From Rubripirellula sp. (GTDB lineage Bacteria > Planctomycetota > Planctomycetia > Pirellulales > Pirellulaceae), in assembly GCA_965216875.1 (NCBI GenBank), contig OZ244207.1:3008001-3072000 (forward strand): a stretch of DNA of 64,000 nucleotides, read 5' to 3'. Below the pieces are notes generated by a model. It saw only the letters and a program-made list of their open reading frames with translations. It was not told the origin of the DNA and did no database searches. Shown piece by piece: positions 16,669 to 44,451 of this stretch. The position numbers were made by a program, and so were the translations under genes. The first letter of the stretch is position 1. Each line of letters begins with the position of its first letter.

Positions 16669-16696
16669 ATCGATACTGATTCGAGACCGAATCGCG

Positions 16697-17334: not shown

Positions 17335-17350
17335 TGCAAGCGCCGTTCCA
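17335..17350 (-). promoter_or_regulatory. Sigma54 (-24/-12) promoter for the TerB-like gene/hydrogenase operon
   Basis: Minus strand TGGAACGGCGCTTGCA = GG-N10-GC, one mismatch from TGGCACG-N4-TTGCW, about 70 nt upstream of the ATG at 17263. Confidence 0.72.
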
Positions 17351-17682
17351 ATTGCTGCCACATAACATTCTGGGCCAAAAAGTGGGCACGGCCGGGCGCG
17401 TTGACGATCACAAACCGTGCGTTTTCGCACGCACGAAGCCGGCGGCGCGCCGTTTCGCCCATTTCATCTGTGCACAATGGTGAGCGAACCCCCGTTGCTG
17501 GCTCGTCCATCGATCAGCATCCTTGGGGAAGCGGCCAGAGCGAAAAGACTCGTGTTGGCGGAACGCCGATTGCTTTGCAGAGAATCAACGAACATCAAAA
17601 TTCGGTTTGACCTCCGGTCACGCCGAGACGACTTATCCCGATCCCCTTCCGCTCGACGAAAAACCTCCGAACGACCACGTCC

Positions 17683-22350: not shown

Positions 22351-22482
22351 TCGCACAACAAACTGGGCAACGTAGGCAACCCAGTGAACCCGCGTATTTG
22401 GTGTGGTTGCTAACGATTGCGCCGTCGCATACGATACCCCTCGCACGGCTAAGCCAAGCCAAGTTCACACTTGCGAGAAATC

Positions 22483-23181: not shown

Positions 23182-23819
23182 TAGACCACGAGCTTCGCAT
23201 ACTCGATCCAGAGCGGCGAATAGATTTCAGCGCTGTGGACGGTTGCCGATGCGGAGTAGACGGTCACGCGAGTGTTTTCGTCCATGGCTCGCCGAAAGGC
23301 CAACCCGGAACGACGAGTATGTGGTGCTGACGTGACCACAACCATCGTTTCGAGCTTTGGGAACTGTGCTGCAACAGCGCGAGCTTCACTCAACGACCCC
23401 ATCGACGTGGCAGGATCTGGGTCAACGGTCATGACGCTTTCGCGCGGGACACCGTAGTGCTCGAGATAGTCAATGGCGCGGCTGACGCGCGTACGACTTT
23501 CCTTCTTAACGAAATCGTAGCTCGCCTTTTGCTGCTCATTCAGCACGATGATCTTCTTGACGCGTCGCCAGTGATACAAATCGGACGCTGCTCGCAGCCG
23601 CTTGAAATAGGGCTCACCTCCGGCCATCACGTATGCGACTTCACCCGTCGCCTCGGCGTTGTGTTCGACAAGGGGCGCTGCGACCCAGGCTCGCACGGGA
23701 CGAAAAGACAAGGCGATTGAAACGATCGCCCAGGACAACAGGACGAGAACGCATCGGCGCCGCCAACGTCGCGCCACCGCACTGGGTGCACCACCGCCTG
23801 TCGATTCCCGCTCGTTCAT
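23166..23819 (-). CDS. YdcF/DUF218 family membrane-anchored protein
   Basis: N-terminal TM, VMAGG, RLRAA, SEA, VVTSAPHTRR, EYAK. Confidence 0.85.
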   Translation of the reverse strand: MNERESTGGGAPSAVARRWRRRCVLVLLSWAIVSIALSFRPVRAWVAAPLVEHNAEATGEVAYVMAGGEPYFKRLRAASDLYHWRRVKKIIVLNEQQKASYDFVKKESRTRVSRAIDYLEHYGVPRESVMTVDPDPATSMGSLSEARAVAAQFPKLETMVVVTSAPHTRRSGLAFRRAMDENTRVTVYSASATVHSAEIYSPLWIEYAKLVVYYFVA

Positions 23820-24871
23820 TCTTGCTCGCTAGAGACTTCGATATAAACATCGACTGGCAAGCCGACCGGCAGGGACATTTCCGTTTCTCGCAATTCAATC
23901 CAGACGCGCCGGCTATAGGTATCGGTCCGCTCACCCGCCCATTGACCAAATAGTTTCTTCGGAGTCATTTGCGGTTCGACTTCGACCACTTCGCCCCGCC
24001 CGAGCACGCCCTCGGCGCCATCGGAAGTGATATGAGCGGTCTGACCAACTCGAATACTCAGTGCATCATACTCATCAACTTCGGCGACCGTGCGCAGCCT
24101 CGACGTATCCGACATCACGATGAGCGAGCTGGGATCTTCGGGAGTCGTCAATTCTCCGGGCTCTGCTTCGACCGCCAGGATCTGGCCGTCACTGGGCGCT
24201 TTGATCATCGTGCGATCGAGGTTGATCTGCGCGATGCGAAGTCGCGACTCCGCTGCTCGAACCGCGGCCTTTGCAGCCAACAATTCGTCCTCGCGCGCCG
24301 GCGCCTCCATCGTTTCAAGCCGCCCCTTTGCCGCAGCGGTCAAGGCTTTGAGCGAGACCATGTTGGTATACAGGTCGTCAAGCGATTGCTGGCTGAACGC
24401 ATTGCCACTGTAGAGTTTCAGACCTCGTTTGTAGGCCTTCTCGGCCCCACTTTGACGTGCCTTGGCGGCCGCGTACTCTTGGCGGGCGGTTTCAATTTCT
24501 GATTCACGAAAACCGTTCTCGAGGCGGGTCTTGGTCGCCTCTTCACGCGCAAGCAGCGAGGCAGCCAAGTCACGTTCGCTTTCGAATCTCGCTGAGTCGA
24601 GGCTGACCAGCAGGTCGTCTTTGGAAACCCACTGGCCTTTCTCGACGTGGATCTCAGTAATCTGCTCAGCGATGCGAGCGCGCAGCTCAACTTCTTGTGT
24701 TCGTCCCTCGATCCGACCTGACGCGCGCACGACCATACTTGTTGCCGCAGAACTGGTCGTGCGAACCGGCCTTGGCGTCACGTCACCAAGCGGCAAACGC
24801 TGCTGATCGATGAACATCAGCGCAGAGCCGAAGATCACCGCCGTGATGAGGATGGTTGTGATGTGCTTCAC
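23816..24871 (-). CDS. HlyD/DevB-like membrane fusion (periplasmic adaptor) protein
   Basis: N-terminal TM, ASGRIEG, VEKGQWV, coiled coil, IKAPSDG, VDEYD, GLPVDV; GTG start overlaps the upstream stop. Confidence 0.9.
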   Translation of the reverse strand: MKHITTILITAVIFGSALMFIDQQRLPLGDVTPRPVRTTSSAATSMVVRASGRIEGRTQEVELRARIAEQITEIHVEKGQWVSKDDLLVSLDSARFESERDLAASLLAREEATKTRLENGFRESEIETARQEYAAAKARQSGAEKAYKRGLKLYSGNAFSQQSLDDLYTNMVSLKALTAAAKGRLETMEAPAREDELLAAKAAVRAAESRLRIAQINLDRTMIKAPSDGQILAVEAEPGELTTPEDPSSLIVMSDTSRLRTVAEVDEYDALSIRVGQTAHITSDGAEGVLGRGEVVEVEPQMTPKKLFGQWAGERTDTYSRRVWIELRETEMSLPVGLPVDVYIEVSSEQE

Positions 24872-25644
24872 TTGAATTGTCCGTTTTCGATTTCGCACAC
24901 GCGATCCGCGTACTTCAGAATTCGAGGGTCATGCGTCACGACAACCGTCGCCGAGTCGGTTCCATCGACGAGCTCGCGGAGCAGTTCCATGACCTCAACC
25001 CCCGACTTCCCGTCGAGCGCCGCGGTCGGCTCATCGGCCAGCAACAATTTTGGCGATGTGATCACCGCCCGCGCTAGTGCGACGCGTTGGCATTGCCCCG
25101 GGCTCATCGCCGTCGGCAGTTGTTTGCGGTGCAACTCCAACCCAACGCGCTTGAGCAACTCACCTGCTTTTTCGCGAGCGTCGGGAAGAGTCATCCCTTG
25201 AAGGGTTAGTGGAACGGCAACGTTGTCCTCTGCTGAGAGTCCCCGTATCAACTGGAATTTTTGAAACACGAAGCCAATCAGTTCACGGCGCACCTGGGTC
25301 CGCTCGGCCACTTTCAAAACGTCGACGCGACGTTCGTCGATGTAGACTTCACCCGAATCGCATTCGAGCAGACAACCGAGAATCGACAGCAGCGTGCTCT
25401 TGCCACTACCCGAGGGTCCCGAAAGAAATACGCACTCACCAGCAGCGGCCGAAAAATCGACACCATCAAGGACCCATCGTCGCTCGCCACCAATCTCGTA
25501 CGACTTACGCACGTCCGTTGCTGAGAGGATGGGCGGTAATGCCGGTTCACCCTGATCATCACAATCGCAGCTTGGTCCAAGAACAAAGGCGTTCTTCTCG
25601 GGTGGCAGTATCAGGTCGTCGCCTGTGATTGAATCGCTCATCAT
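24868..25644 (-). CDS. ABC transporter ATP-binding protein (LolD/DevA-like)
   Basis: GPSGSGKST, GFVFQ, MSPGQCQRVALARA, LADEPT, VTHD. Confidence 0.95.
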   Translation of the reverse strand: MMSDSITGDDLILPPEKNAFVLGPSCDCDDQGEPALPPILSATDVRKSYEIGGERRWVLDGVDFSAAAGECVFLSGPSGSGKSTLLSILGCLLECDSGEVYIDERRVDVLKVAERTQVRRELIGFVFQKFQLIRGLSAEDNVAVPLTLQGMTLPDAREKAGELLKRVGLELHRKQLPTAMSPGQCQRVALARAVITSPKLLLADEPTAALDGKSGVEVMELLRELVDGTDSATVVVTHDPRILKYADRVCEIENGQFK

Positions 25645-26771
25645 TAACCCTGCAATACGGAGTGAGGGTCAACGCGGCGAACCCGAAAATAGGGCAGCGC
25701 CGATGCCAAGAGGCAAATGCTGAATACCAACAAACTGCTGCCAATATAGAGTCCCATTGGAATCTCGATTGACGCTAGTGGCGTGCTAAAACAGGTCTGT
25801 ATGACGTGCGTCGCAACGATTCCGATTGCGATTCCGACACTTGCGATCAAGGACGACTGTGCAGCAAGCAGTGTAATGATCTCGCGCTCGGTGGCTCCAA
25901 TCGCCTTGAGCGTTGCGAATTCGCTGATGCGATCGAGGACCATTGCGTACAGGGTTTGCCCGACCATCACCAATCCAACCAGCAATCCCAAAAAGGTTGC
26001 GGCACCAAAACTGATTCCAAGTCCAGTCCGAGTCATCCAGAAATTAACACTGATCGATGCGTACTCGGCACTGGTCATGGCCGTCACATCATGAAGTCGA
26101 CGCTCTATTTCACTGCAAACCTGCGCCGCATCAGCTCCTGGTGCCAAACGCACCAAGAAGTACGAGGCCTTATCCGGCTCGCCGCGTGCTAAGTCGATAT
26201 GGTGGTCATAGTTTGTGAACACGTAGGGCGTCACCAAGAAGCTTAGGACACCGTACGATTTTCCCGAGACGCGAACCCGCTTGCCGTTAATCTCCCGAAC
26301 ATCACCGATTGCGGGATTGATGAGCTTGCTGTCATCACATTGGTCCACGATCACGGCATCGGGATACGTGAGTGCGTCCGCGGGACCTTCAACGATATCG
26401 TAGGCCCGCCCCAGGTCGGTCCCCTCGGTCACCCCAACCAGCATGACGCCTTCGTAGTTGCCGTTGGGAAGACTGATTTCGGAAAACTCGATGCGCATGG
26501 GTTCCGCCGCGGCCACGCCCGGAATGCTTCGCACCCGATGAATCCATCGCACAGGAATACTGTGCGGGAAGTCAACGTAATGCATACCGCGATTGCCAAC
26601 CCAAATGTCAGCATTACTCCGATCGACAAGCAGACTTGCTTTGTGGATCAGGCCGAAAAAGAGCCCGCCCTGGATGTTAACCAACACCACCGAAAAGATC
26701 ACGCCGATCAATCCGGCAACCAACTTGCCGCGATCAAAGAGCAACGTGCGTGAGGCGATGTTCCAGAGCAT
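25644..26771 (-). CDS. ABC transporter permease (FtsX/MacB-type, DevC-like)
   Basis: N-terminal TM, ADIWV periplasmic domain, EFATLKAIGA, C-terminal TMs, VDP. Confidence 0.92.
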   Translation of the reverse strand: MLWNIASRTLLFDRGKLVAGLIGVIFSVVLVNIQGGLFFGLIHKASLLVDRSNADIWVGNRGMHYVDFPHSIPVRWIHRVRSIPGVAAAEPMRIEFSEISLPNGNYEGVMLVGVTEGTDLGRAYDIVEGPADALTYPDAVIVDQCDDSKLINPAIGDVREINGKRVRVSGKSYGVLSFLVTPYVFTNYDHHIDLARGEPDKASYFLVRLAPGADAAQVCSEIERRLHDVTAMTSAEYASISVNFWMTRTGLGISFGAATFLGLLVGLVMVGQTLYAMVLDRISEFATLKAIGATEREIITLLAAQSSLIASVGIAIGIVATHVIQTCFSTPLASIEIPMGLYIGSSLLVFSICLLASALPYFRVRRVDPHSVLQG

Positions 26772-26890: not shown

Positions 26891-27919
26891 CTAAGGAATC
26901 CCTCGCACAATAGGCGGGCCGACAATTTTGGTAAGCCAAACCGGCATCTTTTGCCAAAGCTGAATCAGCCGTTGCTTACCGGAATCGTCAGGACGCATCT
27001 CTTCGGGCGATCCCTTGCGCACGTAGTATTGCCACACCGCCTCGCACGGTTTTGCCCCCCACTGAGCCTTGAATTTATAGGTTCCGCTTCCTTCACTGCT
27101 ACGCCCAAAATCAAACGTATGGCTGCCGCGTTGGATTGCCCGTTCCAACAAATAGCGATACATGAACATGTTGGCGTTGGTGCGATTGAATTCACGCAAA
27201 CAGCTAGCACTGGGAACTTCAGTCATTCCGTTCTGATGCACAAGTATGCCGCTGGCGACAGCAGTCCCCTTTTGGCTCACGACACAGATCTCGGCGTCGT
27301 CGCCAAATTCCCGGCACATGGCTTGGAACAGCCGTTTGGGAAACACGGGCGTGCCGAGATCCCGCATGTTACGCGCGAAGATAGCGTAAAAGGTGTCAAC
27401 CAATTCGATTCCTCCGAACTCATGCTCCAAGTCGTATTGGCCTGACTTTTTGATTTGACTCCGCAGCTTGGATCGATAGGACTTCATCAACGCTTCTGGA
27501 GTTTCATGCAGCGCCAAACGCATGTGCTTCTTTTCAGTCCGTTCGAAGTTGAACTTCGGGTGTTTCACCGGCGTTTCATGACGTAGTTCCAAATACCGTA
27601 CATCCAGCTCGTCAGCAAGGTCGCAGGCGTGATCGACGAGTTTCACTGCTGACTCATCATCCGTTGCCCAGGCACCGCCGGTATTGATGTAGGGGATACT
27701 GACGAGAAACCGCCCGAAGATTGGCCCAGAAACTAAGAAGAGCGGCAGGATTCCGGTGACGTTTCCCGACCGTTTGGCCTGAAGCACATAGGCGCGCTGG
27801 CGCAAGCCGTCGGCGACCGTATTGACCCAGGCCTGTGAGTGCCCCGTGAGTCTCGGCATCGTGCCATCGGCCACGTCTGAAACGCCGCATGGCCACTGAG
27901 CGGTTTCGATTTCTAGCAC
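26891..27919 (-). CDS. FemAB-related GNAT protein, PEP-CTERM/exosortase system-associated
   Basis: GILPL, LVSIPY, YLELR, RSQIKK, MRDLGTPV, FDFGRS, FKAQWG. Confidence 0.9.
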   Translation of the reverse strand: MLEIETAQWPCGVSDVADGTMPRLTGHSQAWVNTVADGLRQRAYVLQAKRSGNVTGILPLFLVSGPIFGRFLVSIPYINTGGAWATDDESAVKLVDHACDLADELDVRYLELRHETPVKHPKFNFERTEKKHMRLALHETPEALMKSYRSKLRSQIKKSGQYDLEHEFGGIELVDTFYAIFARNMRDLGTPVFPKRLFQAMCREFGDDAEICVVSQKGTAVASGILVHQNGMTEVPSASCLREFNRTNANMFMYRYLLERAIQRGSHTFDFGRSSEGSGTYKFKAQWGAKPCEAVWQYYVRKGSPEEMRPDDSGKQRLIQLWQKMPVWLTKIVGPPIVRGIP

Positions 27920-28221
27920 GATGACTCAAGCAGAAAATGTAAGGACGGCTTCGATGACAAACAAAACAGAAAGAGGCCAGAATAGCCAAGGATTCACGGC
28001 TGCACAGTGGCTTTTTCGGCAGCGTGAAACTGATGCCCACTCTGCAGCCTCGATGGCGGTGCGTGAATCCGCATAATCGGCGTTACCCAAATAATTTCAC
28101 CGCAAGTGCCAAATTGTCTCTAGCGGCTACGTCTGAACAGACGTTACAGACTGAGATCGATGTGATGCCGAAAATGGACGCGTCACCGCTCGCAACTCTT
28201 TTCTTCTGTTTTAGCAGCCGC

Positions 28222-28980
28222 ATGACAAACCCCGCCCAGCGATCGCACCAAGCTGTGTTGCACCAGCGTTTGGCCTTGCAGACGGACCCGGATCGACGAA
28301 TCGACTATCGGTTGGCCGCGACACACCTCGACCTCTACGGCGCCTTCGAACTCCTTCAACGCCGCTACTCGATCGCCGGGCTCTCGAAGCCCAACATGCC
28401 CCTTCGAGTTGAACCATTCCACCTGTGGCGCCAGTCTCAAGTCTTCGTTGCCGTCAGCGGCGCGACGGTTGTTGGTTGCATGACATTGATTCGACCAGGC
28501 CATCGCGACGGGTTGCCATCCATCAAAATGAACAAAGCGGTTGAGCCTGCACTGCCCAAAGGTGCTGTCCTTGGTGAAGTCACTTCATTGGCAATCGACA
28601 CAGACAACCACTGCCGAACCTCGGAAGTCTTTTTGCGGCTGACCGAGCTGATGCAGATGTTTGCACTTCGGCATGGGGTCAACCATGCGGCAGCAGTCGT
28701 GCACCCCAAACACGCTCGAATGTACCAACGCGCACTCGGTTTCAAGGTGATTGGCCAAACCGTTCCCTGCGATCGAGTCGCCGGAAGGCCTGGTGTGACA
28801 CTGATTCGCCAGATCAGTCATTCCATGGGAGGACGATTGAACTGGCAACAAAGGTTTTCACCAAGCCGAGCGTGTCAGATGGATTTGTCGCCGCGACCAA
28901 TGACCGAGCGGCAGAAACGGTTCTTTTCGTTCTACATGACCAATCGACCGTCTCGATACGAATACACCAAGGCGGCTTAA
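28222..28980 (+). CDS. FeeM-like N-acyl amino acid synthase (GNAT fold)
   Basis: AFELLQRRY, VFVA..VVGCMTL, GLP, GEVTSLAID (putative catalytic Glu), VHPKHARMY..LGF; start uncertain. Confidence 0.75.
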   Translation: MTNPAQRSHQAVLHQRLALQTDPDRRIDYRLAATHLDLYGAFELLQRRYSIAGLSKPNMPLRVEPFHLWRQSQVFVAVSGATVVGCMTLIRPGHRDGLPSIKMNKAVEPALPKGAVLGEVTSLAIDTDNHCRTSEVFLRLTELMQMFALRHGVNHAAAVVHPKHARMYQRALGFKVIGQTVPCDRVAGRPGVTLIRQISHSMGGRLNWQQRFSPSRACQMDLSPRPMTERQKRFFSFYMTNRPSRYEYTKAA

Positions 28981-28994: not shown

Positions 28995-30101
28995 TCAAGC
29001 GTCGACCAATACCGAAGCAATCCGGCACGCCGCACGCCCGTCCCAAAGCTCTGGGCAACTTCCCTTTTTGTAGTCGCCACTTAAAACGGCGCTCAGGTGG
29101 TGCCGCAATTTCTCGGCCGAGTTACCAATCAATGTACTTGTCCCTTCATCGCACGTGATTGGACGTTCGGTGTTCTCACGCATTGTCAAACACGGGACGC
29201 CGAGAGCCGTCGATTCCTCCTGCAAACCTCCCGAGTCCGTAACAATCACTTTGGCTTGCGACGTCAAACAAAGAAAATCGTTGTAGCCCAACGGATCGAG
29301 CAGGCGCAGGTTTGGCGCATCGCTGATCAACGACTGAAGCTGGTGATGGTCAATCCGTGCTCGCGTTCGCGGGTGAATCGGGAAAACCAGCGGCATTGAC
29401 TTCGATACATCGACCAGCACTTCCAGCAGCGCCCTCAAGGTATGTGGAGCATCGACGTTCGACGGTCGATGCAGGGTCACCACACCGTAGGCCCCTGGCT
29501 GAAGCGAAAGTTCGCCCAAAGTTGGCCGGCTCTTTGCTTGTTCTACCTGCGTCATCAACGTGTCGATCATGACATTGCCGACAAGATGAATCCGTGATGA
29601 ATCATGGCCTTCATTCTTCAGGTTCTCTGCCCCGGCCGGCTCGCTGCATAACAGGAGGTCAGAAATCGAATCGGTGACAAGGCGATTGATCTCTTCCGGC
29701 ATTCGTCTGTCGAAACTTCGAAGCCCCGCTTCAACATGAGCCACCGAGATATTGAGCTTTGCAGCAGCGATGGCGGCAGCCATCGTCGAGTTCACGTCGC
29801 CGACAACAATCATCCGCTCTACGGGCTCACCCGACGCCGCAGCAGCTCCCAAAAACTCTTCAATCGCAACCATGACGTCTGAGGTCTGCTTCGCGTGTGA
29901 CCCAGATCCGACCCCCAATGATAGGTCCGGACGTCGAATCCCCAACTCTTCGAAAAAAACGTCCGAAAGGTTGCGATCGTAGTGCTGTCCCGTATGCACG
30001 AGCGTGGTTCGCAGCTGTGGCACCTGATCGAGCTCACGCAAGATGGGCGCAATTTTCATGAAATTCGGTCGCGCACCGGCGACAATCGCAAAACGCTTCA
30101 T
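28995..30101 (-). CDS. wecB: UDP-N-acetylglucosamine 2-epimerase (non-hydrolysing)
   Basis: GARPNFMK, HTGQHYD, VGDVNS, HVEAGLRS, PEEINR, TDSGGLQEE, ERP. Confidence 0.96.
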   Translation of the reverse strand: MKRFAIVAGARPNFMKIAPILRELDQVPQLRTTLVHTGQHYDRNLSDVFFEELGIRRPDLSLGVGSGSHAKQTSDVMVAIEEFLGAAAASGEPVERMIVVGDVNSTMAAAIAAAKLNISVAHVEAGLRSFDRRMPEEINRLVTDSISDLLLCSEPAGAENLKNEGHDSSRIHLVGNVMIDTLMTQVEQAKSRPTLGELSLQPGAYGVVTLHRPSNVDAPHTLRALLEVLVDVSKSMPLVFPIHPRTRARIDHHQLQSLISDAPNLRLLDPLGYNDFLCLTSQAKVIVTDSGGLQEESTALGVPCLTMRENTERPITCDEGTSTLIGNSAEKLRHHLSAVLSGDYKKGSCPELWDGRAACRIASVLVDA

Positions 30102-30559
30102 AGATGCTGATGGGTGGAGGTCACACACGTAGATCGAGTGCGACCAGTTTGCCTTGGTCCAACAAGAAAAGGAAGGGACCAGGATGATCACCTCAGTCCT
30201 CTTTTGGCAGCTAATTCACGAAATTGTTCCACACAGTTCGGCCTTGCTGGCAAATCGCCCGTTTCATCCGCCAGGACCGCGCCAGGGAACAACATGTCTA
30301 GGTTCAGGGGCGCGTTTTTTGGTAACTCTCGATCCTAATTCAGGCCGTTATTGACCAGCAAACATTCGCTTGTGACAGCGTTGTGGGGTTGCTGACTAAT
30401 TGTCGCAGCCACCCCAGCAGGCAGAACCTGCAAAACCGGACCGGCACTCCCGTGAATACAGATCGGATGCTTGGTTCTCGTCGACACGCCCCAATTTCGT
30501 TGGACCGAGCGTCCTAAGCTTTCGTGACTCGGTCAAAACGACAATTCTCGAGAGTAACG

Positions 30560-33445
30560 ATGTCAGCGCACGGAAATTGCCAATCCAAATGTCAACAGTG
30601 CCTCCTCCCCGGCGCAGTTCCTGGAGCCAACCTGGACGCTCAATCGGTCTGCCAGCTCTGCACGACCGATACGACTCAGTCGAAGGCTGAAGCCGAACAC
30701 CGGCGGCTGGACTACAAACGAGACTTGGAAGCGACTCTCGAGAATATTCGCGGCCAGGGGGAATACGATTGCCTGGTCAATCTCAGCGGCGGCAAAGACA
30801 GTTGCCTGCTCCTTCACAAGCTCAAGAAAGAGTACGGGTTGAACGTACTCGCATTCACCACCGACATGAATATTCCTGATGTCGCGTGGAAGAACATCAA
30901 TCGCACCATTGAATTGCTGGACGTGCCTTTGGTGACGTTTCGGCCTCCGGTTGAGTTCTACAAAAAGATGTTTCGGTTTCTGTTGGCCAACCAGGAATCA
31001 CGCGGGGCCGTGCGAACCGTTTGCTACATTTGCGCGCCATTGTTCGAAAGCTACTCCATCCGCTTGGCAGTTCAAAAGAACATCCCACTCATCGCAGCTG
31101 GCTATGCTCCCGGCCAACCCGAACCTGATCGCATGGAGTACGAGTTCTCTCGCAAACTCTTGTGCGAACAAGACTGGACACCACCAGAGCTTGTCGAGTC
31201 GGGTCTATTCTCCGAGCAAGAACTTTCGCTCTTTTGGAACCCGCTGAGCTACCCGGAAGGAACACAGTTTCCTCGATACGTCGCACCGTTCCACGCATGG
31301 GACTACAGCCAAGATGAAGCGATGGATCTCGTCGTGAAGCTAGGCTTGATCAAGAACAAGAAGAGCGCCAGCCCGATACACAGCAATTGCCCAGTCAATT
31401 GGTTGCTGATGTATTCCGACCTAAAACACCTCGGCTTCAATCCTTACGCCCCCGAGTTCGCCAAACTTGTCAGGGAAGGCAAAGCGCAACGTCGCTACTG
31501 GCGCATCATGGGTCCGATCGTCGACACGATGATCCGTCAAAAGGTAATGCTGGGGCGAAATGTTAGTAAGTCACTTCAGTGGCTTGGCATGGACGAAAAG
31601 GAACTCGCAATCACGCGAGAAAGCCAAGGAGCTGAGTACAGCGAACAAATCACTCGTTCAGCCCAACCCCAGGTCATCGGCTGGGATCAAGTGAGTGAAA
31701 AACGCCAAGTTGAACCTAAGACAACCAGCAAGGAAGACCCAAACACAACGGTCGCACTCCTTCGCCACAAATTGCGTAACGCCCCCGACGCCGTAGCCAT
31801 CGGTCACCGTGTCGATGACGAATGGGTCACACTTTCTTGGCGGCAATACACTGCCCGCACACTCAAGCTCGCGGCAGAGCTTCAAGAACTTGGCGTCAAC
31901 AAAGGCGATTGCGTTGCGGTCTATGGCAAATCGGATGCTGGCTGGAGTATCACCGAAAGTGCGATTCACGCAATTGGCGGAACCGTCGTCGGAATCGACG
32001 TCAACGCATCGACTGAAGCGTGCCGTGATATCTTGGACCGCACTTCAACCACAACCATGGTCGTTGTCGGCGATTGCCCCGATGAGATTCAATCGCTGAC
32101 CACAATCACTCGACTGAGGATCAATCCCGCCGGCCATTTCACGAGTGCAAATGCGACTCAAGTTCCCACATGGAACGAGATGCCCGAAGTCAACGGCGAC
32201 GACATTGCAACCATCATCTTCACCTCAGGGACAACGGGTAACCCGAAAGGGCTCAGCTACAGCCACAAACAAATCATGGTGGCAGTTGAAGAGATGAATC
32301 GAGAATTCACGCTGGTCGAACCGGGTGACACGACCCTGTGCTGGCTTCCGATGAGCCACCTCTTCCAACGCATGATGAACTTGGTCGCCATGCGCCAAGA
32401 CGCGCAAATCTATTTTGAACCAGAGCCGAAACTGGTCGTCAAAGCAGCGGGAGAAGTATCGCCATCGGTCATGTTTGCTGTACCGCGGTTCCTCGAAAAA
32501 CTTGCAGAGGGACTCGACGCCTTTATCCAACGTCAACCGGCGCCTCTTCGCAGCTTGATTGAAAAGGCAATGGCCGCAACGGACGAAACCGACAGTGTCA
32601 TCAAACGACGAATCCGTGGCATGGTCGCCAACAAAGCCCAACAACTGCTTGGTGGCAAGCTGAAGTATTTCGTGAGCGGTTCGGCTCCTTTGTCCGCCGA
32701 TGTTGCAAAGAAACTCGAACGGATGGGCTGGGAAATCCTCGAAGCCTATGGCGTCAGCGAAAACGTCGTGCCGATGTCGGCCAACCGACCTGGCCAATCC
32801 AAACTGGGAACGGTTGGGAAACCGCTTCCTTCGAACGAAATTCGAATCGATGCCGATGGAGAGATCAAAGTTCGCGGGCCTGGTTGCATTGAAACCTATT
32901 TCGGCGAACACGATCGCCTGCTTGATGATGACGGTTTTCTATCAACAGGCGACATGGGCTACTTCGACGACGAGGGAAATCTTGTCATCGATGGACGGAA
33001 AGACAGCCGCCTAAAGACGTCGACTGGACGCAAAATCTTTCCCGAGCAGGTCGAGCGCGTCTATCAACAGAGTCGCATGATCTCAGACATGATGGTCACT
33101 GGGCATGGAAAGAAATTCATCGTTGCATTGATCGTTCCTAGTGAGGAATTTATCGATCAATGCTTGAACCTGATGCCCGTGGACGCCACGCGAGAGGAAG
33201 CTCTTCGAAGTGAGGCAGCCCGCCTATTGATGCAGGAAGAGCTCTCTACTCTCGAGCACGAACTCGAATCGCATGAGCGTGTCGCTGACTTCCAATTGCT
33301 TGACCGAGAGTTCAGCGCCGAGGAAGGTGAGTTAACGGCAAGCCTCAAGAAACGCCGCCGAGAAATTGAACGAAATCACTCAGGCGCGCTGTCTGGAATG
33401 TTTGCCGGCCAGAGTAACGCCACTGTCGCGGGGTCGCACGCATGA
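30560..33445 (+). CDS. Fusion: N-type ATP-pyrophosphatase (WbpG/N-acetyl-sugar amidotransferase-like) plus long-chain acyl-CoA synthetase-like AMP-binding domain
   Basis: N-terminal CxxC..CxxC, YDCLVNLSGGKDS, CYIC; C-terminal FTSGTTGNPKG, WLPMSH, VPRFLEK, SGSAPL, EAYGVSE, GTVG, TGDMG, GRK, GELTASLK. Confidence 0.85.
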   Translation: MSAHGNCQSKCQQCLLPGAVPGANLDAQSVCQLCTTDTTQSKAEAEHRRLDYKRDLEATLENIRGQGEYDCLVNLSGGKDSCLLLHKLKKEYGLNVLAFTTDMNIPDVAWKNINRTIELLDVPLVTFRPPVEFYKKMFRFLLANQESRGAVRTVCYICAPLFESYSIRLAVQKNIPLIAAGYAPGQPEPDRMEYEFSRKLLCEQDWTPPELVESGLFSEQELSLFWNPLSYPEGTQFPRYVAPFHAWDYSQDEAMDLVVKLGLIKNKKSASPIHSNCPVNWLLMYSDLKHLGFNPYAPEFAKLVREGKAQRRYWRIMGPIVDTMIRQKVMLGRNVSKSLQWLGMDEKELAITRESQGAEYSEQITRSAQPQVIGWDQVSEKRQVEPKTTSKEDPNTTVALLRHKLRNAPDAVAIGHRVDDEWVTLSWRQYTARTLKLAAELQELGVNKGDCVAVYGKSDAGWSITESAIHAIGGTVVGIDVNASTEACRDILDRTSTTTMVVVGDCPDEIQSLTTITRLRINPAGHFTSANATQVPTWNEMPEVNGDDIATIIFTSGTTGNPKGLSYSHKQIMVAVEEMNREFTLVEPGDTTLCWLPMSHLFQRMMNLVAMRQDAQIYFEPEPKLVVKAAGEVSPSVMFAVPRFLEKLAEGLDAFIQRQPAPLRSLIEKAMAATDETDSVIKRRIRGMVANKAQQLLGGKLKYFVSGSAPLSADVAKKLERMGWEILEAYGVSENVVPMSANRPGQSKLGTVGKPLPSNEIRIDADGEIKVRGPGCIETYFGEHDRLLDDDGFLSTGDMGYFDDEGNLVIDGRKDSRLKTSTGRKIFPEQVERVYQQSRMISDMMVTGHGKKFIVALIVPSEEFIDQCLNLMPVDATREEALRSEAARLLMQEELSTLEHELESHERVADFQLLDREFSAEEGELTASLKKRRREIERNHSGALSGMFAGQSNATVAGSHA

Positions 33446-34590
33446 GCAAGCCGACAGAATACATCTTCGTAACCGGAGCAACCGGAGTGGTTGGCAGCGC
33501 CGTCATTGCCGAGCTCTTGATGCGTCCTGATGTTCACGTCACCGCGTTGATCCGAGGCGAATCCGACGATGAGGTCCAGCGTCGCGGTGACGCGCTCCTT
33601 CAGTCGATCGATCGTCACACTCCAGGGTATGCCGCGCGGTTCCAGGTGGTGCGTGGTGACATCACCAAGGCAAACCTTGGACTCAGTGAAAACTCAATGG
33701 CCTCGGTCGCCGCACAAACAACACGAATCGTTCACAGTGCGGGCAAAGTCAAGCTGAATCAGTCAATTGCGGAAGCAAGACAGCACGCGATCTTTCCTGC
33801 TGAGCAAGTGATTTCACTCGCGAAGCGTTGTGGACATCTCAAGAAGATTGATGTGCTTAGCACGATCGGTGTCGCGGGAAAAATGGAAGGCAATGTTCCT
33901 GAGAGCCGTCTCACGCATGAACGAGAATTCCACAACACGTACGAGCAATCAAAAGCTGAAGCCGAAGAACTCTATTGGCAGCAAGCCGCCAATGGTATGC
34001 CACTGAGTATCCATCGCCCCAGCATGGTTGTCGGCGACTCGAAAACCGGTTGGGTCCTGCAGCATCAGGTCTTTTACTACCTTTGCGATTTCTTGAGCGG
34101 ACAGCGGACGTTCGGCATTTTGCCGCGTTTCAATTCTCAAATGCTCGACATCGTTCCGGTCGATTACGTCAGCCGATGCATCACAGCGTCTCTGTTTGAT
34201 TCCGAATCCGTTGGCAAGGTCTTCCATCTGTGTAGTGGCCCCATCGATGAACTGAGGATCACGCATCTGAGAGCGACCATTCAAAACGCATACACCTCGA
34301 TCGGCGCACAATGCCGAAACGGTCTCGCGCTTCCCAAAGAAGTTTTTGCAGGAATCGCGTGGCTGCTAAGTCGTCTCGGCCCAAAAGGCCTGCGCAAGCC
34401 AGCCAAGACCGTTCCCTTTTTCCTCGCCTACCTTGGCAGGCGTCAAGTTTTCGAAAGCCAGATGACCCAAAACTGGTTTCGGCGCTTCGATATCACCCTA
34501 CCCAAACCCAGCGACTACCTCGATCGGATCGTGACGACCTATGCAAAGCAGAGCCGGTCAACTCGAGCGACGCAAGGATTACAATCATGA
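33442..34590 (+). CDS. Extended SDR, fatty acyl/thioester reductase-like (NAD_binding_4)
   Basis: VTGATGVVG, RGDIT..LGL, IVHSA, NTYEQSKAEAE, RPSMVVG, DIVPVDYV; ATGA coupling to the upstream gene. Confidence 0.88.
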   Translation: MSKPTEYIFVTGATGVVGSAVIAELLMRPDVHVTALIRGESDDEVQRRGDALLQSIDRHTPGYAARFQVVRGDITKANLGLSENSMASVAAQTTRIVHSAGKVKLNQSIAEARQHAIFPAEQVISLAKRCGHLKKIDVLSTIGVAGKMEGNVPESRLTHEREFHNTYEQSKAEAEELYWQQAANGMPLSIHRPSMVVGDSKTGWVLQHQVFYYLCDFLSGQRTFGILPRFNSQMLDIVPVDYVSRCITASLFDSESVGKVFHLCSGPIDELRITHLRATIQNAYTSIGAQCRNGLALPKEVFAGIAWLLSRLGPKGLRKPAKTVPFFLAYLGRRQVFESQMTQNWFRRFDITLPKPSDYLDRIVTTYAKQSRSTRATQGLQS

Positions 34591-36320
34591 ACGCCTCAAT
34601 TTCCCATCCGCACATTGACGCACTCGCGAAAATCGTTGGCCTTGAGTATGTCGACGTCTCCGAGCAAGGCCGCGAGTATCATGCCAAAGGACTGATCCCA
34701 AGGCACTGCCGATGCCAAATGATTGTGCGTCCCGACAACGCGGGCGAAGTTGCTTCTGTCGTCAAATACGCAGATAAAAACGGGCTGAAGGTGTGGGCCT
34801 ATAGCACTGGACGCAACTGGGGATATGGCACGACTCAATCCCTTGATGAAGATTCGATCGTACTGCTGCTCGATCGAATGAATCGAATCATTGAAGTCAA
34901 CGAGGAAATGGCCTACGCCGTTCTCGAGCCTGGAGTCACTCAGGAACAACTCAACAATTATCTAAAGCAAAACAATATCAAGCTTTGGATGGACTGCACA
35001 GATTCAACTCCTAAAGGCAGCGTCATCGGTAACGCGCTCGAACGTGGTGTTGGGTACACTCCCTACGGAGACCATTTTGGCCAACTTTGCGGCATGGACG
35101 TCGTGATGGCGAATGGCGACGCGGTTCAAATGGGCGGATGCCAACCGGGATGCCACACATTCCATACGCACAAATGGGGTACAGGACCATTCCTCGACGG
35201 CGTCTTCTCACAATCGAATCTCGGTGTGGTCACCAAGGCCGGCATCTGGCTGATGCCAGAACCGGAAGAATTCAACTTCATGGCGGTCGAGCTCAAGAAC
35301 GAGCAAGACTTGCCGCGACTCATCAACCACGTCCGAGAACTCGCCCTCGCGGGAACAATTGGCAACGTTCACTGCTTCAACCCCTTCCTTCTCCTCAGCG
35401 CGCGCATTCAATACCCGTTTGACCGACGTGGCGATCGAACGCATTTGAACGACGAGGACATTCGCCAACTCGCCAAAGAAAACCACATCGCTCCTTACTC
35501 GGTCGTATGCGGAATCTACGGTACTAAAGAAGAAGCAGCAGCCCACCGCAAACAGGTCAAAAAGAAACTCGGCTCCTATTGCCGTTTGCTGTTCGCAACC
35601 GACCGCCGAATCGCATTCGTCGGCAAACTCTGCGACTTCCTGCTATCCAAAAAGCCACCTTATCCATTGCATCACAAGGTCGTTGCTTGGCTCACGCGCA
35701 AGTTCATTTATCCAGGTTCGCCCCATGCGTTGAGCCTAGTGCCACGCGTTGCCGGATACCACAAAGGGATTCCTGACGAATTCGTTGTCAGCGCCGCCTA
35801 CTTCAAACGTCGCGGTCCACGGCCGGAATCGATTGACCCGATTCGCGACGATTGCGGCTTGCTTTGGCTCGCTCCGATCCTGCCAGCATCGAGCGATCAT
35901 GTGGAAAAGCTTATGTCAGCCATCAAACCGATCTACGACAAGCACGGTTTCGAGTTTCCGCTTTCGATCATCATGCTGAACCCGCGTACGCTTATCTTTG
36001 CTCTGCCGATGTTCTTTGACAAAAGCGACCCTAGCGAATGCCAGCGGGTCAAAGAACTGTACGAAGAAGTCATCACGACGACTTCGGACATGGGGTATCA
36101 GCAGTACCGAACCGGAACCATGTACATGGACCGAATCCTGGACCAAAACCCAGGCCACCGCGACTTGGTTCGAAGCCTCAAGTCAACACTCGACCCGAAC
36201 AACACGCTCGCCCCCGGCAAGTACGGGACCACGCGTGATCAGACGGAAACTGCCGTTGCTCCCCCGATCGTTGCGCCAACCACAATGGCCGTCGATTCGC
36301 AGAATACGCCCATCGCGTAG
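34587..36320 (+). CDS. FAD-linked oxidase of the p-cresol methylhydroxylase/vanillyl-alcohol oxidase family
   Basis: STGRNWGYG, EPGVT, GSVIGNALERGVGYTPYGDH, GPFLDGVFSQSNLGVVTK, YR...DPNNTLAPGK; ATGA coupling. Confidence 0.9.
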   Translation: MNASISHPHIDALAKIVGLEYVDVSEQGREYHAKGLIPRHCRCQMIVRPDNAGEVASVVKYADKNGLKVWAYSTGRNWGYGTTQSLDEDSIVLLLDRMNRIIEVNEEMAYAVLEPGVTQEQLNNYLKQNNIKLWMDCTDSTPKGSVIGNALERGVGYTPYGDHFGQLCGMDVVMANGDAVQMGGCQPGCHTFHTHKWGTGPFLDGVFSQSNLGVVTKAGIWLMPEPEEFNFMAVELKNEQDLPRLINHVRELALAGTIGNVHCFNPFLLLSARIQYPFDRRGDRTHLNDEDIRQLAKENHIAPYSVVCGIYGTKEEAAAHRKQVKKKLGSYCRLLFATDRRIAFVGKLCDFLLSKKPPYPLHHKVVAWLTRKFIYPGSPHALSLVPRVAGYHKGIPDEFVVSAAYFKRRGPRPESIDPIRDDCGLLWLAPILPASSDHVEKLMSAIKPIYDKHGFEFPLSIIMLNPRTLIFALPMFFDKSDPSECQRVKELYEEVITTTSDMGYQQYRTGTMYMDRILDQNPGHRDLVRSLKSTLDPNNTLAPGKYGTTRDQTETAVAPPIVAPTTMAVDSQNTPIA

Positions 36321-36325
36321 GTACC

Positions 36326-37231
36326 ATGATTCAACTTGCCTCGACAGTTTTGAACTACCTGCCTCTCGCGATTGGCCACTGTACCAGCACGCAGAGACTC
36401 GACCGAACTCCCGAACCAACCGCAGAAATGGACTCGGACGCGAGTGTCGAGCAATATGACCGCGCGTGGCAGACGGAACTTGGCCTAGCCTGGGCTCTTG
36501 GCTTGAAAATGATTCATCAATCAGGAGTCGAATTGCATGAAGCGAACGCGTTGGACATTGCCTGCGGTCCTGGCCGCTTCACGTCGGCGCTTGCCAACCT
36601 GTTCAAGGCCAGACGCACCGTCGGTCTCGATCTTTCTGAAACGATGATCGCGCGGGCGCGTAGCAATCAATTGGAGTCACATAACGACTCGCTCGAATTC
36701 GTTGTTGGCAACGCTTTGGAACTTGGCGACTTCGACGACGATGAATTCCATTGCGTTACCTTCAACCAAGGTGCGCACCATTTCGATACTCAAGACCAGG
36801 TAACGGCAGTCCTCGCACAGATGGACCGCGTCTGTTCGCCCGATGGTATCGTACTCGCTACGGACCTTGTACGCCTAAGCAACCAGGCGGTTACCGACCG
36901 CTACATCGGTGTCACCAGCGTTGACTACGAGCGTCGCAAACTTGGCGACTTCAAAAACGATTTCGCCAACTCGATGTTCGCGGCATGGACACCCGATGAG
37001 CTTCATCGCTGCATCCCAAACGATTCCAAACGCAATTGGTACCATCTTGTGCCACACCTCTTGCCAACCATTCAGGTGATCGTCGGAGTTCCCAAGAGCC
37101 ACCGCCATTGGAAACAAAACGGTGATACGCCATGGCAGCAAGCTGACGCCACCAACTACATCGCCCCTCATTTGAAAGCAAAGTGGCAATTGCTCAACGC
37201 GTCCGTCGCGATGGCTCGAAGCCTAAAATGA
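36326..37231 (+). CDS. Class I SAM-dependent methyltransferase
   Basis: RTPEP..MD, LDIACGPG, GLDLSETM, GNAL, HHF, DLVR. Confidence 0.9.
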   Translation: MIQLASTVLNYLPLAIGHCTSTQRLDRTPEPTAEMDSDASVEQYDRAWQTELGLAWALGLKMIHQSGVELHEANALDIACGPGRFTSALANLFKARRTVGLDLSETMIARARSNQLESHNDSLEFVVGNALELGDFDDDEFHCVTFNQGAHHFDTQDQVTAVLAQMDRVCSPDGIVLATDLVRLSNQAVTDRYIGVTSVDYERRKLGDFKNDFANSMFAAWTPDELHRCIPNDSKRNWYHLVPHLLPTIQVIVGVPKSHRHWKQNGDTPWQQADATNYIAPHLKAKWQLLNASVAMARSLK

Positions 37232-37335: not shown

Positions 37336-38934
37336 ATGCCACGAATATTATTGGTTCTTTTCTCGCTCGTCGTTGTCTCAACGTCGCCAAGCGAAGAATT
37401 TGCAGTTGTCTCTGACCAAACGAAAGTCGAGGAGCAATACGCACTCCAGCTCGACGACTGCGTTGCCATTGCGATCCGAAACCAACCGGTCTTGCGAATC
37501 AAGAACGAAGACACACACATCGCCAGGGAACAGGTCGATGTCGCTCGTTCCTACTACTTCCCGCAAGTCGACGCAAACGCTCGCTTCACAAACATTGACC
37601 AAGTCCGGTCATTTGACATCGAAGGATTCTTTGACGGCCCCGTCGGTGATGTCTTTAGCGATGCAGCGGCATTCTTTCAAATCGCGCGTCAACTCAACTC
37701 CACCGCCGCACTCAACGCGCTCGACAATCCGACAACGCCAATCTTTCCTGGCGGACCAACTTTCGAGTCGGTCAAGCAGCAGGCCGCCGGAACCGTTCCA
37801 GATCGCATTCGCGTTCCCGTGTTGGGCGAAGCCTTCCTCAACACTCAAGTTCGTTTGGTGCAGCCGCTTTGGACAGCGGGCCGAATACGCTTCCGGGTCG
37901 ACCAAGCACGGTACGGAGTGAAATTCGCTCGCCTAGCCGAGACCCGCACGCGTCAAGAAGTCGAATTCAACGTTACTCGTGCGTACTTGGCCGTACTGCT
38001 GAGTCGCCACTTGCGAACGATCGTCGAAGACGCGCAAGAGAAAACAGATTTTCTATTGGATGCGACCCGCGACCTCGTCGAAGGCCAAGGATCAAAACAA
38101 CTGACCCAAGCGGAGGTCTATCAGGTAGAATCCGCCGATCGCTTCTTCAAATCTCAGATGCCTCGCTTGCGCGCTGCTGAGTTGCGAGCGGTCGCGGCAC
38201 TCTATTTGGCGATGGGGCTTTCACAAGCCAGCGGCCTCGAAGTAGCCAACGAGCAATTGGGATTCTTTCAGGATGTTGGCACGGTCGACGAAGCAATCGC
38301 CACAGGCTTATCGCATCGGCCGGAAGTCCATCAGGCTGCTGTAGGCACGCGTGTGGCAGGGCTCGAATACCGCTTGGCAAAAGCGGAGTTCTTTCCAGAA
38401 GTGGTCGCTTTTGGGCAATTCACCAGCATCCATGACGATCGCAATTTTGCAAATCCTAATGACAGCAGCGAATGGGCGGGCGGTGTTGCGGCTTCGATCG
38501 ACATAAGTACGGGCGGACGGCGTAAAGCCGAAAAACGACTGGCAACACACAAGGCCACTAAAGCGCGAGCGACACTTCAACAGGTCAAACTGCTTGTCGA
38601 ACAGCAGGTGCGAGATGCCTTCCTCGAACTCGAGGGCGCCCGCGACACGGCTTACGTGGGCCAGGACGTCATCGACTCGGTCGAGAAAACGCTCCTCTGG
38701 CTCGACAAGAAAGAGACGCACCGCGTCGTAGCGATTGACGACCGACTTCATTTCCTGAACAAGGTCAATACGATCGTATTGGAATCAAAAGTAAAAACAG
38801 AGTATTATCAATCGCTGTTTGCCTATAACCTTGCGATCGCTCGCTTGAGACTTGCAACGGGGTACTCCGATGCGTTTGATTACCAGCCTCTTCCTGATCT
38901 CCATTCTGACCGTAACATCAACGCTGCGCAATGA
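37336..38934 (+). CDS. TolC-family outer membrane efflux protein
   Basis: Signal peptide, LDDCVAIA, ARSYYFPQV, QPLWTAG, HRPEV, AEFFPEV, YNLAIARL. Confidence 0.9.
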   Translation: MPRILLVLFSLVVVSTSPSEEFAVVSDQTKVEEQYALQLDDCVAIAIRNQPVLRIKNEDTHIAREQVDVARSYYFPQVDANARFTNIDQVRSFDIEGFFDGPVGDVFSDAAAFFQIARQLNSTAALNALDNPTTPIFPGGPTFESVKQQAAGTVPDRIRVPVLGEAFLNTQVRLVQPLWTAGRIRFRVDQARYGVKFARLAETRTRQEVEFNVTRAYLAVLLSRHLRTIVEDAQEKTDFLLDATRDLVEGQGSKQLTQAEVYQVESADRFFKSQMPRLRAAELRAVAALYLAMGLSQASGLEVANEQLGFFQDVGTVDEAIATGLSHRPEVHQAAVGTRVAGLEYRLAKAEFFPEVVAFGQFTSIHDDRNFANPNDSSEWAGGVAASIDISTGGRRKAEKRLATHKATKARATLQQVKLLVEQQVRDAFLELEGARDTAYVGQDVIDSVEKTLLWLDKKETHRVVAIDDRLHFLNKVNTIVLESKVKTEYYQSLFAYNLAIARLRLATGYSDAFDYQPLPDLHSDRNINAAQ

Positions 38935-39811
38935 CGCTATCGTTCGCGCCGAAGACGATGTCATACGCTGCGCGTTTTGCCCCTCGGTCATGCAGGGACG
39001 CGACATCAAACTGGTCGAAAGTGTGACGCGCATTTTCACCAAGAAGTTATCCGAGCAGACTCCTGGAATCACCTTCGAGCCTGTCTTCCCTGAAAAGGGT
39101 GATCTCGACATCGTTGCCAGCAATCTCCAAACCGGCAATGACTATGAACTCGCGGTCGTTTGGGGAATCGAATACGGCCTGCTAAAGGAAACGGTCAAAG
39201 ACCTGGAGGTCATCTGCGTCGGGTCGACGATGAAAGTGTTGCTTCCAACCTCTTCGATCATCGTTCGGAATCCAATCTTGCCGATCGCAAACCACACTGA
39301 CAAGAATCCATTCCGCGTTCATCTGATCGACGGCGGCTCGATGATCGCCGAGATGCACTTTAAGCAATTGGAAGTTGCTTACGGCGACAAGGTCCGCCGA
39401 GCTGAGAAACCTGAGTACGGTGCAGCGCGACAGGTGGGTGACCTAATCGACGGCATTCTCAACGAGGACTTTGATGGGCTCATCATCGATGAATACAATT
39501 TGCTTGCTCTGCAACAAGACTTCCCCCAGCTTCTTCAAGGTTGTGCTGTCAGCTCAGACTGGGGAAATGTAAAACCAGCGCCGACCTTCCCCCATCCGGC
39601 TCTCATCGGCCGCCGCTCAATTGTTGAGGATCGCTCAAACGGTTCCTGGCAAGCGATCTCAAGCCACTTGTTTGAGGTCATGAATAAAACGCGAGCAGGC
39701 GAGCGGTTTCGGGAAGGATGGTATGCTCAACAAATCGTTCCGCCGTCAGAATCGTACGACAAACAAGTGACCGAAAAGCTCAACCTTTACCGGCCTCTGA
39801 TCTCATTCTAG
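38870..39811 (+). CDS. Secreted protein, possibly PhnD/phosphonate-binding-like periplasmic binding fold
   Basis: Signal peptide; SSIIVR and PTFPHPALI resemble PhnD-family patterns; weak similarity. Confidence 0.5.
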   Translation: MRLITSLFLISILTVTSTLRNDAIVRAEDDVIRCAFCPSVMQGRDIKLVESVTRIFTKKLSEQTPGITFEPVFPEKGDLDIVASNLQTGNDYELAVVWGIEYGLLKETVKDLEVICVGSTMKVLLPTSSIIVRNPILPIANHTDKNPFRVHLIDGGSMIAEMHFKQLEVAYGDKVRRAEKPEYGAARQVGDLIDGILNEDFDGLIIDEYNLLALQQDFPQLLQGCAVSSDWGNVKPAPTFPHPALIGRRSIVEDRSNGSWQAISSHLFEVMNKTRAGERFREGWYAQQIVPPSESYDKQVTEKLNLYRPLISF

Positions 39812-44379: not shown

Positions 44380-44451
44380 CGGCGGACCCCAGAACAATAA
44401 GACCAACGCTCAGTATAGCGCGTCCTTATCCTTTTTTCCTGCCAGCGCATC

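Follow-up and report, generated by a model that had tools for sequence, protein, structure and literature searches.

In the 64,000-nucleotide stretch of Rubripirellula sp. contig OZ244207.1 analyzed here (hereafter, the window), the open reading frame (ORF) at 30560-33445 encodes a genuine single protein of 961 aa, in which a zinc-ribbon PP-loop domain is followed by an intact long-chain-type acyl ligase. Judged from the gene contents of related loci, the ligase, a thioester reductase, and the PP-loop protein constitute a conserved, widespread, and uncharacterized cassette. We tentatively propose, with a probability of roughly 0.35, that the fused gene belongs to a cassette that reduces an N-acyl amino acid made by FeeM and then closes a ring to yield an exported oxazoline or oxazole lipid.

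The fused reading frame encodes a single protein

The reading frame is uninterrupted from its ATG, and its sole stop codon is at the end. The zinc-ribbon PP-loop (AANH) domain (residues 8-355; 30581-31624) belongs to a conserved family that has no Pfam match, and its fold is like that of N-acetyl sugar amidotransferases (NASATs) and of the amide dehydratase (AMDH) domain of CysH and AlbIV. It contains a tetracysteine motif (C11, C14, C31, and C34; 30590-30661), the residues of which are zinc ligands in the solved relative 8WEX, the PP-loop SGGKDS (30785-30802), and a second cysteine set (C155, C158, and C277; 31022-31390), which the family keeps or loses as a unit and which is likely a single metal site. 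A polar, poorly conserved linker of 42 aa (31619-31744), in which 13 of 40 counted residues are charged and the predicted local distance difference test score (pLDDT) is below 50, connects this domain to a FadD11-like and carboxylic-acid-reductase-A-like adenylating ligase of the long-chain type (31745-33442), with the P-loop FTSGTTGNPKG at 32219-32251 and the A10 lysine K930 at 33347-33349. All of these features, and those below unless stated otherwise, are on the forward strand. A preliminary description, made from the sequence alone, had reported one ORF joining a PP-loop domain to a complete acyl ligase through a charged linker, and the open frame, the positions of both loops, and the composition of the linker agree with it.

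A single contig of run X1 covered 30400-32847 with no differences and no gaps, and run X5, with a gap over the linker, was uninformative on the join. The read check across the linker that had been suggested earlier thus revealed neither a stop nor a frameshift, although run X1 may be the source sample and hence provides no independent check of the assembly. Independent support for the fusion came from seven fused homologue clusters, because all of them keep the frame while their linker sequences vary. An assembly artefact was therefore ruled out by the in-frame fused homologues together with the X1 contig spanning the linker. A model of the full-length fusion, based on a 9-sequence alignment, had a mean pLDDT of 62.6 and a predicted template modelling score (pTM) of 0.48, values that say nothing on domain packing.

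The PP-loop domain represents a separate clade

The only match of the N-terminal part (residues 10-185) was TIGR03573 (WbuX), and its 102.8 bits fell short of the cut-off of 203.2; scores of true WbuX proteins on this model are 290-311 bits. The PP domain was modelled with a pLDDT of 93.8, and its top structural match was NASAT 8WEX (Z 23.3, root-mean-square deviation 4.7, 321 aligned, TM 0.63), which bears out the WbpG-like fold assigned at the outset. The second-best match reached only Z 11.9, and TtuA and NcsA were the next fold matches. The domain has the SGGxDS loop and the N-terminal tetracysteine, with S instead of G/N before the second CxxC. A search of the ESM Atlas yielded only generic PP-loop/NASAT clusters, and a plasmid search yielded four weak matches, none in an OzmP-like context.

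In profile comparisons, the nearest group was the clade of reductase- and ligase-fused relatives (E 7e-53), followed by AMDH-type domains, a set picked by eye against the supplement of the CysH paper (hhalign E 2e-37, 29% identity over 287 profile columns), and then by NASAT-like domains, whose profile was shallow (E 2e-26; 6 sequences, 3 of them confirmed above the cut-off). The PP family, the fused-relative clade, AMDH, and the NASAT-like domains formed four separate supported clades in the tree, and a tree joining the family and NASATs against AMDH and the reductase-fused clade was mildly rejected by the approximately unbiased test (p-AU 0.024). The PP domain is thus neither a NASAT nor an AMDH, but by analogy with these relatives it likely shares their mode of action, the adenylation of an amide oxygen.

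In remote relatives, the PP domain is joined to a reductase (P0259, P0296, P0308, P0309, and P0328) or ends a module of adenylation (A), carrier (T), and reductase (R) domains (P0299 and P0327; P0290 is a fragment of the same clade). Because of these fusions, the PP step appears to be tied to the product of the reductase, and the reductase-PP and A-T-R-PP arrangements suggest that the PP domain acts on the product that the reductase releases. The sequences of P0299, P0327, and P0290 are all cut at the N-terminus, and P0327 and P0290 have an intron-like insertion or break at the same position in the reductase, so that these proteins may be eukaryotic. Other architectures were listed as formyltransferase-A[PP]-T (P0043), acyl carrier protein-PP (P0302), and hexapeptide-repeat-PP (P0284).

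C155, C158, and C277 are jointly kept in 143 of 188 close members and in 31 of 38 AMDH domains. They are replaced together by S/Y/Y in one 45-member clade located in the same cassette, and are absent from all 7 remote fusions. Since the S/Y/Y clade occupies the same cassette, the putative second metal site is not needed for the task of the cassette.

The fusion is a rare form of two adjacent genes

A search with the N-terminal domain among proteins of 528-1682 aa gave 57 matches out of 2497 candidates: the query itself, 7 fused homologues (62-85% identity in the PP domain, one of them truncated), and 46 proteins of the non-ribosomal peptide synthetase (NRPS) type and 3 HisF-WbuX fusions, which were only 25-36% identical to the N-terminal domain. 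When a stand-alone homologue served as the query, 3472 candidates of 205-653 aa yielded 1077 matches. Among the best 120 matches listed, 119 were proteins of 349-425 aa without a Pfam match, and identities ranged from 63 to 74% (the query itself excepted).

The fused form was found in 4 of 91 loci overall and in none of the 80 metagenome loci kept out of 234 found. After the removal of 16 near-duplicates and one broken gene, the remaining 74 loci comprised 3 fused genes, 47 in which the ligase is the next gene, 9 with another next gene, and 15 that were too short to judge. It is therefore apparent that two adjacent genes are the usual form and that the fusion is an exception restricted to a lineage. 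The architecture search proposed earlier thus did find fused homologues (7 clusters), but most members are separate adjacent genes. Moreover, the type of architecture has precedents: the AMDH domains of CysH and AlbIV have been characterized, and a PP-loop domain within an adenylation enzyme accounts for 46 of the 57 long matches. Fusions of PP-loop and adenylation domains are thus already known, whereas the form in which the PP-loop domain precedes a long-chain-type ligase, like the cassette itself, is apparently undescribed in the literature searched, a coverage that leaves out most subscription journals.

The fused clade of the window had a tree support of 98. Locus L019 nests inside it, with a frame break directly past the A-run of the linker (L019:11110-11135; assembly error or decay), and was set aside as a true split form. 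Frame breaks in the ligase, reductase, or oxidase, likewise assembly errors or decay, were seen in two metagenome-assembled genomes (MAGs; L020:11692-13835 and L024:12921-18377). P0007 and P0008, which have a 13-aa linker, were placed apart from the clade of the window, and yet a single origin with it was not rejected (p-AU 0.22 and 0.20). On the other hand, grouping of P0277 with the fused family members was rejected (p-AU 1e-58). From these trees, P0277 is clearly an independent PP-ligase fusion, and such fusions have arisen at least twice; three separate origins were not supported, as P0007 and P0008 can be joined with the clade of the window.

Strong matches to the PP family were found in 4 of 61 relatives and in 4 of 401 genomes of the phylum, including the source genome. 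The cassette occurs in planctomycetes, one betaproteobacterium, one Desulfobacteraceae genome, and many metagenomes, and the nearest named homologue of the fusion comes from a Rubripirellula MAG (the same-genus genome G002).

The ligase, reductase, and PP-loop genes form a conserved cassette

The fusion is the first gene of an overlapping or abutting run. Its stop codon overlaps the start of a stand-alone thioester reductase gene (NAD_binding_4; 33442-34590), whose product has the MxaA R domain as its nearest solved relative. The stop codon of the reductase gene in turn overlaps the start of a gene for a VAO/PCMH-family flavoprotein, FeeG-like by family (34587-36320). An S-adenosylmethionine (SAM) methyltransferase gene (36326-37231) follows, which is optional and is missing from this position in locus L016 of the same genus, and a TolC-family outer-membrane channel gene (37336-38934) comes after the run. 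Upstream of the fusion, a FeeM-family N-acyl amino acid synthase (PF21926, 105 bits) is encoded at 28024-28980; its true start is probably later than 28024.

The composition of the cassette was counted in 22 non-redundant loci flanked by 4 kb on either side; neighbour families were confirmed for 108 ORFs, chosen from 186 listed plus others. The ligase and the thioester reductase were each present in 21 loci, FeeM/ExoAT (a FeeM-type N-acyl amino acid synthase) and an FtsX- or LolA-type exporter in 15 each, a PEP-CTERM motif in 14, and a VAO-type oxidase in 11. In 30 non-redundant loci with 3.5 kb downstream, the ligase was found in 29 and the reductase in 28. In addition, the identical 4 genomes among the 61 relatives carried, with clear score gaps, the PP family together with the reductase and the ligase of the cassette types, and FeeM was found in all 4 of these genomes versus 11 of the 57 other relatives. 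The pairwise distances of the three enzymes were correlated over 28 loci (r 0.75-0.87), as shared ancestry alone could explain, and the PP domain has evolved at roughly half the rate of the ligase.

The preliminary description had pointed out that the HisH/HisF-like partners of WbpG-like enzymes were missing, and this held on a wider scale. A class I glutaminase or HisF turned up in none of 101 stretches, and no class I glutaminase is near the locus of the window, the closest of 8 in the genome being about 290 kb away. Of 31 places that matched glutaminase in five other genomes, none was on the cassette contigs of G040, G054, G151, G219, and G413 (C59), and one on contig C79 of G413 was about 108 kb from the PP gene. 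An asparagine-synthase-type gene was present in one locus. No carrier protein (PF00550) was found near the cassette in any of the 4 genomes, and no sulfur-supply gene was found among the recurring neighbours examined.

Several variants of the locus were also observed. In L077 (9577-12198) and L111 (187-2535 and 7519-9786), radical-SAM-FeeM fusions lie beside PP-family genes without a linked ligase or reductase, and G413 has an additional PP copy accompanied by the full trio. In L113 (5368-13070; G219), the gene of a distant PP relative (30%) is located after those of an acyl ligase and two KAS III enzymes and before that of an ABC exporter, with a ketone-forming step in the usual place of the reductase. 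A gene of about 280-310 aa recurs beside the cassette (L026:3017-3874, L038:9010-9936, L046:9140-9958, and L050:1333-2181); it had no Pfam or NCBIfam match where scanned, and a possible similarity to FeeM had an E of 0.14.

Ligase, reductase, and oxidase

Residues 402-865 matched AMP-binding and AMP-binding_C_3, and the TGD and GRK motifs and the A10 lysine K930 are intact. The best NCBIfam match of the ligase was FadD11 (208 bits versus a cut-off of 950), no ligase model among the best 25 was above its cut-off, and the best single-module match was a carboxylic acid reductase. The reductase keeps its nucleotide-binding and YxxxK motifs, and its profile scored 158.9 bits on the MxaA R domain versus 56.4 bits on a fatty acyl-CoA reductase (both solved structures). 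MxaA releases an N-acyl amino alcohol. The oxidase is of the VAO/PCMH type (best E 8e-83) rather than related to the ether-lipid enzyme AGPS (E 4e-6), and an ether-lipid pathway of reductase plus AGPS was excluded on this basis. It keeps the GYG and YR motifs of its solved relatives, which serve in phenolate binding.

Proposed pathway and alternatives

We observed directly the fusion and its split forms, the cassette, the families of the domains, and catalytic motifs that are intact; from these we infer the following steps from substrate to product. FeeM would synthesize an N-acyl amino acid, which is probably N-acyl tyrosine in loci that have the phenol oxidase. The ligase domain would convert its carboxylate into an adenylate and then into a thioester, which we propose to be that of CoA because no carrier protein is linked. 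The thioester reductase would free an aldehyde or alcohol. The PP domain would then adenylate the oxygen of the amide. Expulsion of AMP by the newly formed hydroxyl or enol oxygen would close the ring and dispense with any ammonia donor. The VAO-type oxidase and the methyltransferase may optionally tailor the hydroxybenzyl group, and the product would be exported by DevABC-TolC, or by Lol-like or MMPL transporters in other taxa. The fusion would merely tether carboxylate activation by the ligase and ring closure by the PP domain. Activation of an amide oxygen is the likely chemistry by analogy, as the characterized or proposed relatives, NASAT, AMDH, and OzmP/CongE/PtxD, all act on an existing amide.

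Several observations weigh against this oxazoline/oxazole pathway. Ligases of this long-chain type ordinarily act on fatty acids, and NCBIfam placed the reductase on a par with the acyl-CoA-reductase family PRK07201 (138.7 bits) and with thioester reductases (132.7 bits). FeeM/ExoAT is missing from 7 of the 22 loci, and the PP enzymes of L077 and L111 have no reductase in the locus, so that a linked reductase is not universal. The NASAT profile used for comparison was shallow. The precedent for ring closure, OzmP, is itself only a proposal, and the likeness to it is one of description and not of sequence. Finally, the absence of a glutaminase leaves it possible that free ammonia may be used, as it is by QueC and NH3-dependent NAD synthetase.

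Two alternatives, each doubtful but deserving consideration, keep the same enzymes and change the chemistry. The PP domain may act as a NASAT on the same substrate in the same cassette, with free ammonia added to the adenylated amide oxygen to give an amidine, which might condense with the aldehyde to form an imidazole. The top structural match to NASAT 8WEX, well ahead of the next, and the conversion of amide to amidine by NASATs point in this direction, and such a reaction would suit the reductase-free loci L077 and L111; against it stand the TIGR03573 score far below the cut-off, the mild rejection of a tree that groups the family and NASATs, and the absence of HisH/HisF from the 101 stretches; in true WbuX proteins, by contrast, even fusions to the HisF-like WbuZ occur. 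Alternatively, the pathway may form a fatty alcohol, accompanied by activation of a carboxylate. This is consistent with the long-chain-type ligase and with PRK07201 scoring level with thioester reductases, and it agrees with background on related proteins: DevABC exporters are named for the export of heterocyst glycolipids, and the AANH enzymes QueC and ArtA, which are among the fold matches, activate carboxylates. The fee cluster has, in addition, been reported with its own fatty-acid-activating enzyme. However, judged by solved structures, the reductase is much closer to the release domains of NRPSs and polyketide synthases (PKSs) than to fatty acyl-CoA reductase, the acid is already activated by the A domain in the A-T-R-PP proteins, and the nearest PP relatives use amides, not acids.

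The remaining alternatives are much less probable. The preliminary description had regarded the fusion as a carrier-independent amide-forming enzyme that couples acyl activation to amidation. One chain with two adenylating domains, the emergence of PP-ligase fusions at least twice, and the absence of a carrier protein near the locus in all 4 genomes accord with it. A self-contained amide synthetase that activates and then amidates a fatty acid is nevertheless unlikely, and we give it little weight, because the pair comes with a reductase in 28 of 30 loci, an enzyme that would use up the acyl thioester, and because the PP domain is also fused to reductases. Most members, furthermore, are split, and an acyl-adenylate becomes an amide without a second ATP. 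The family works on existing amides: WbpG/WbuX convert an amide to an amidine and AMDH dehydrates or isomerizes an amide, and neither amidates an acyl-CoA. There is a still slighter chance that the PP domain acts as an iron-sulfur sulfur-transferase of the TtuA or NcsA kind in making a thioamide or thiazole lipid. TtuA and NcsA rank next in the fold matches, and the widely kept C155/C158/C277 set may correspond, judged by spacing, to the three ligands of TtuA; CysH has also been reported to be brown on purification (PMC7966384). The S/Y/Y clade in the same cassette, the loss of the set from the remote fusions, and the lack of a sulfur-supply gene among the recurring neighbours examined argue against such a role. 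Least probable of all is amidination of a nucleotide sugar for the nearby exopolysaccharide, with an incidental link to the ligase. The adjacent wecB gene, the NASAT fold, and glycosyltransferase-like and sugar dehydrogenase-like genes at about 49-60 kb (called from ORF translations) would fit, but WecB was found in 1 of 22 loci versus 21 for the ligase and the reductase, WecB-FeeM is about 65 kb from the fusion in G002, and the PP domain has been fused repeatedly to ligases and reductases.

If the oxazoline/oxazole pathway is correct, a bolder and, in our estimation, improbable extension is that the cassette is a carrier-free and NRPS-free route to new alkyl-oxazoline/oxazole envelope lipids through a new family of PP-loop cyclodehydratases. 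Such a route could supply a lipid that acts in or anchors PEP-CTERM sorting and biofilm formation, an idea prompted by the exporter that it carries and by its regular location next to exosortase and PEP-CTERM genes. In any case, the fusion, a Rosetta-stone event within a rare lineage, gives a handle on a highly conserved family that lacks a Pfam match. Because the pathway consists of 4-6 soluble enzymes, heterologous expression, the route that solved oxzAB, should show the product. The product would define the role of the large AMDH/OzmP/NASAT-like group acting without a glutaminase, and would probe the published, unexplained tie of N-acyl amino acid synthases to exosortase loci.

Other genes in and around the window

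On the upstream side, the divergent neighbour of the fusion is a UDP-GlcNAc 2-epimerase gene, wecB (28995-30104, reverse strand), which is placed outside the cassette because of its presence in only 1 of 22 loci. Beyond the FeeM-family synthase gene are genes for a FemAB-family PEP-CTERM-associated protein (TIGR03019, above cut-off; 26891-27919, reverse strand), which is context and not a conserved part of the cassette, a DevC/DevA/DevB-like ABC exporter (23816-26771, reverse strand), whose genes adjoin the PP gene in several planctomycete loci, and a PEP-CTERM protein, also context (22471-23181). An exosortase gene and a second FeeM gene lie about 53 kb and 60 kb downstream of the fusion, respectively. 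In the source genome, a single contig of 8.26 Mb, a region of about 70 kb (G000 C1:3.03-3.10 Mb, the window plus L115) contains 4 of 9 ORFs with a PEP-CTERM motif by a simple pattern, the exosortase, an exopolysaccharide tyrosine kinase, and both FeeM genes. The WecB-FeeM-FemAB-ABC order is kept in G002 (C5:370-443 kb; L012, L013, and L116), but about 65 kb from the fusion.

After the TolC gene, a 319-aa protein without a family match (38852-39811), with 31% identity in the same-genus locus L016, and a 1532-aa Ser/Thr kinase with an nSTAND1 NTPase domain (39808-44406, reverse strand) are encoded. Genes resembling those for hydrogenase maturation and hydrogenase subunits, from their translations only, occupy 5661-17400 (reverse strand). 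A polysaccharide locus is at 46964-63718 (reverse strand), in which VanZ-like, deacetylase, and heparinase-like genes were confirmed by family, and glycosyltransferases and methyltransferases were called from translations.

Comparison with known systems

The AMDHs of cystobactamid (CysH) and albicidin (AlbIV) biosynthesis dehydrate or isomerize an amide with no outside nitrogen (PMC7966384). They resemble the fusion in that a PP-loop domain with a zinc ribbon and SGGKD shares a chain with an adenylation enzyme, and in having no glutaminase. However, their domain sits within an NRPS A domain specific for asparagine, and its substrate is asparagine bound to the T domain, whereas the PP domain of the window is N-terminal to a long-chain-type ligase without a T domain (no PF00550), is usually a separate gene product, and forms a separate clade. 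The WbpG/WbuX family has been described as converting the N-acetyl amide of a sugar to an amidine (PMC10607449). The NASATs (WbuX, WbpG, and LpNASAT 8WEX) share the fold, the PP-loop, and the tetracysteine motif with the PP domain, which differs in its score of half the cut-off, the lack of HisH/HisF, its lipid-pathway neighbours, and a structural identity of 16-18%.

OzmP, CongE, and PtxD are stand-alone SGGKDS N-type ATP pyrophosphatases of 362-382 aa that have been proposed to be oxazole cyclodehydratases (PMC4504003, PMC5764310, PMC9057759; also PMC4979870 and PMC12299652), activating an amide oxygen beside a carbonyl and thereby closing the ring (PMC4504003, PMC5764310, PMC9057759). Compared by description and not by sequence, they are similar to the stand-alone forms of the family (349-425 aa), but they are found beside formyl-glycine NRPS and PKS modules, neither of which is beside the family of the window.

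The fee, hye, oxzAB, tyz, and stieleriacine pathways are reported to have features in common with the cassette, namely a FeeM-type synthase, a phenol oxidase that is FeeG-like by family, and a PEP-CTERM link (PMC11959600, 10.1101/2020.06.11.147165, PMC12479983, PMC7293339), and a link of N-acyl amino acid synthases to exosortase loci has been published, according to citing papers. FeeG-type enzymes act on N-acyl tyrosine (PMC11959600, PMC8762209), and the oxidase of the window resembles FeeG by family (VAO/PCMH). OxzA and OxzB make and ring-close N-acyl tyrosine using ATP (10.1101/2020.06.11.147165), and ATP-dependent ring closure of an N-acyl amino acid is the likeness of OxzB and TyzB to the pathway proposed here. 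These systems, however, employ ThiF and nitroreductase enzymes or decarboxylation by FeeG, and the portions of the papers cited here describe no ligase-reductase-PP-loop trio. The stieleriacine cluster was rejected as the same system, its reported gene set being different (PMC12479983, PMC7293339). No ThiF cyclase or nitroreductase was present among the 15 genes scanned at 20-40 kb, the part of the genome searched for them.

The cassette has adenylation and reductase domains related to those of the A-T-R carboxylic acid reductases and to the R domain of MxaA, but its A and R are encoded by separate genes and no carrier (T) domain is linked to them.

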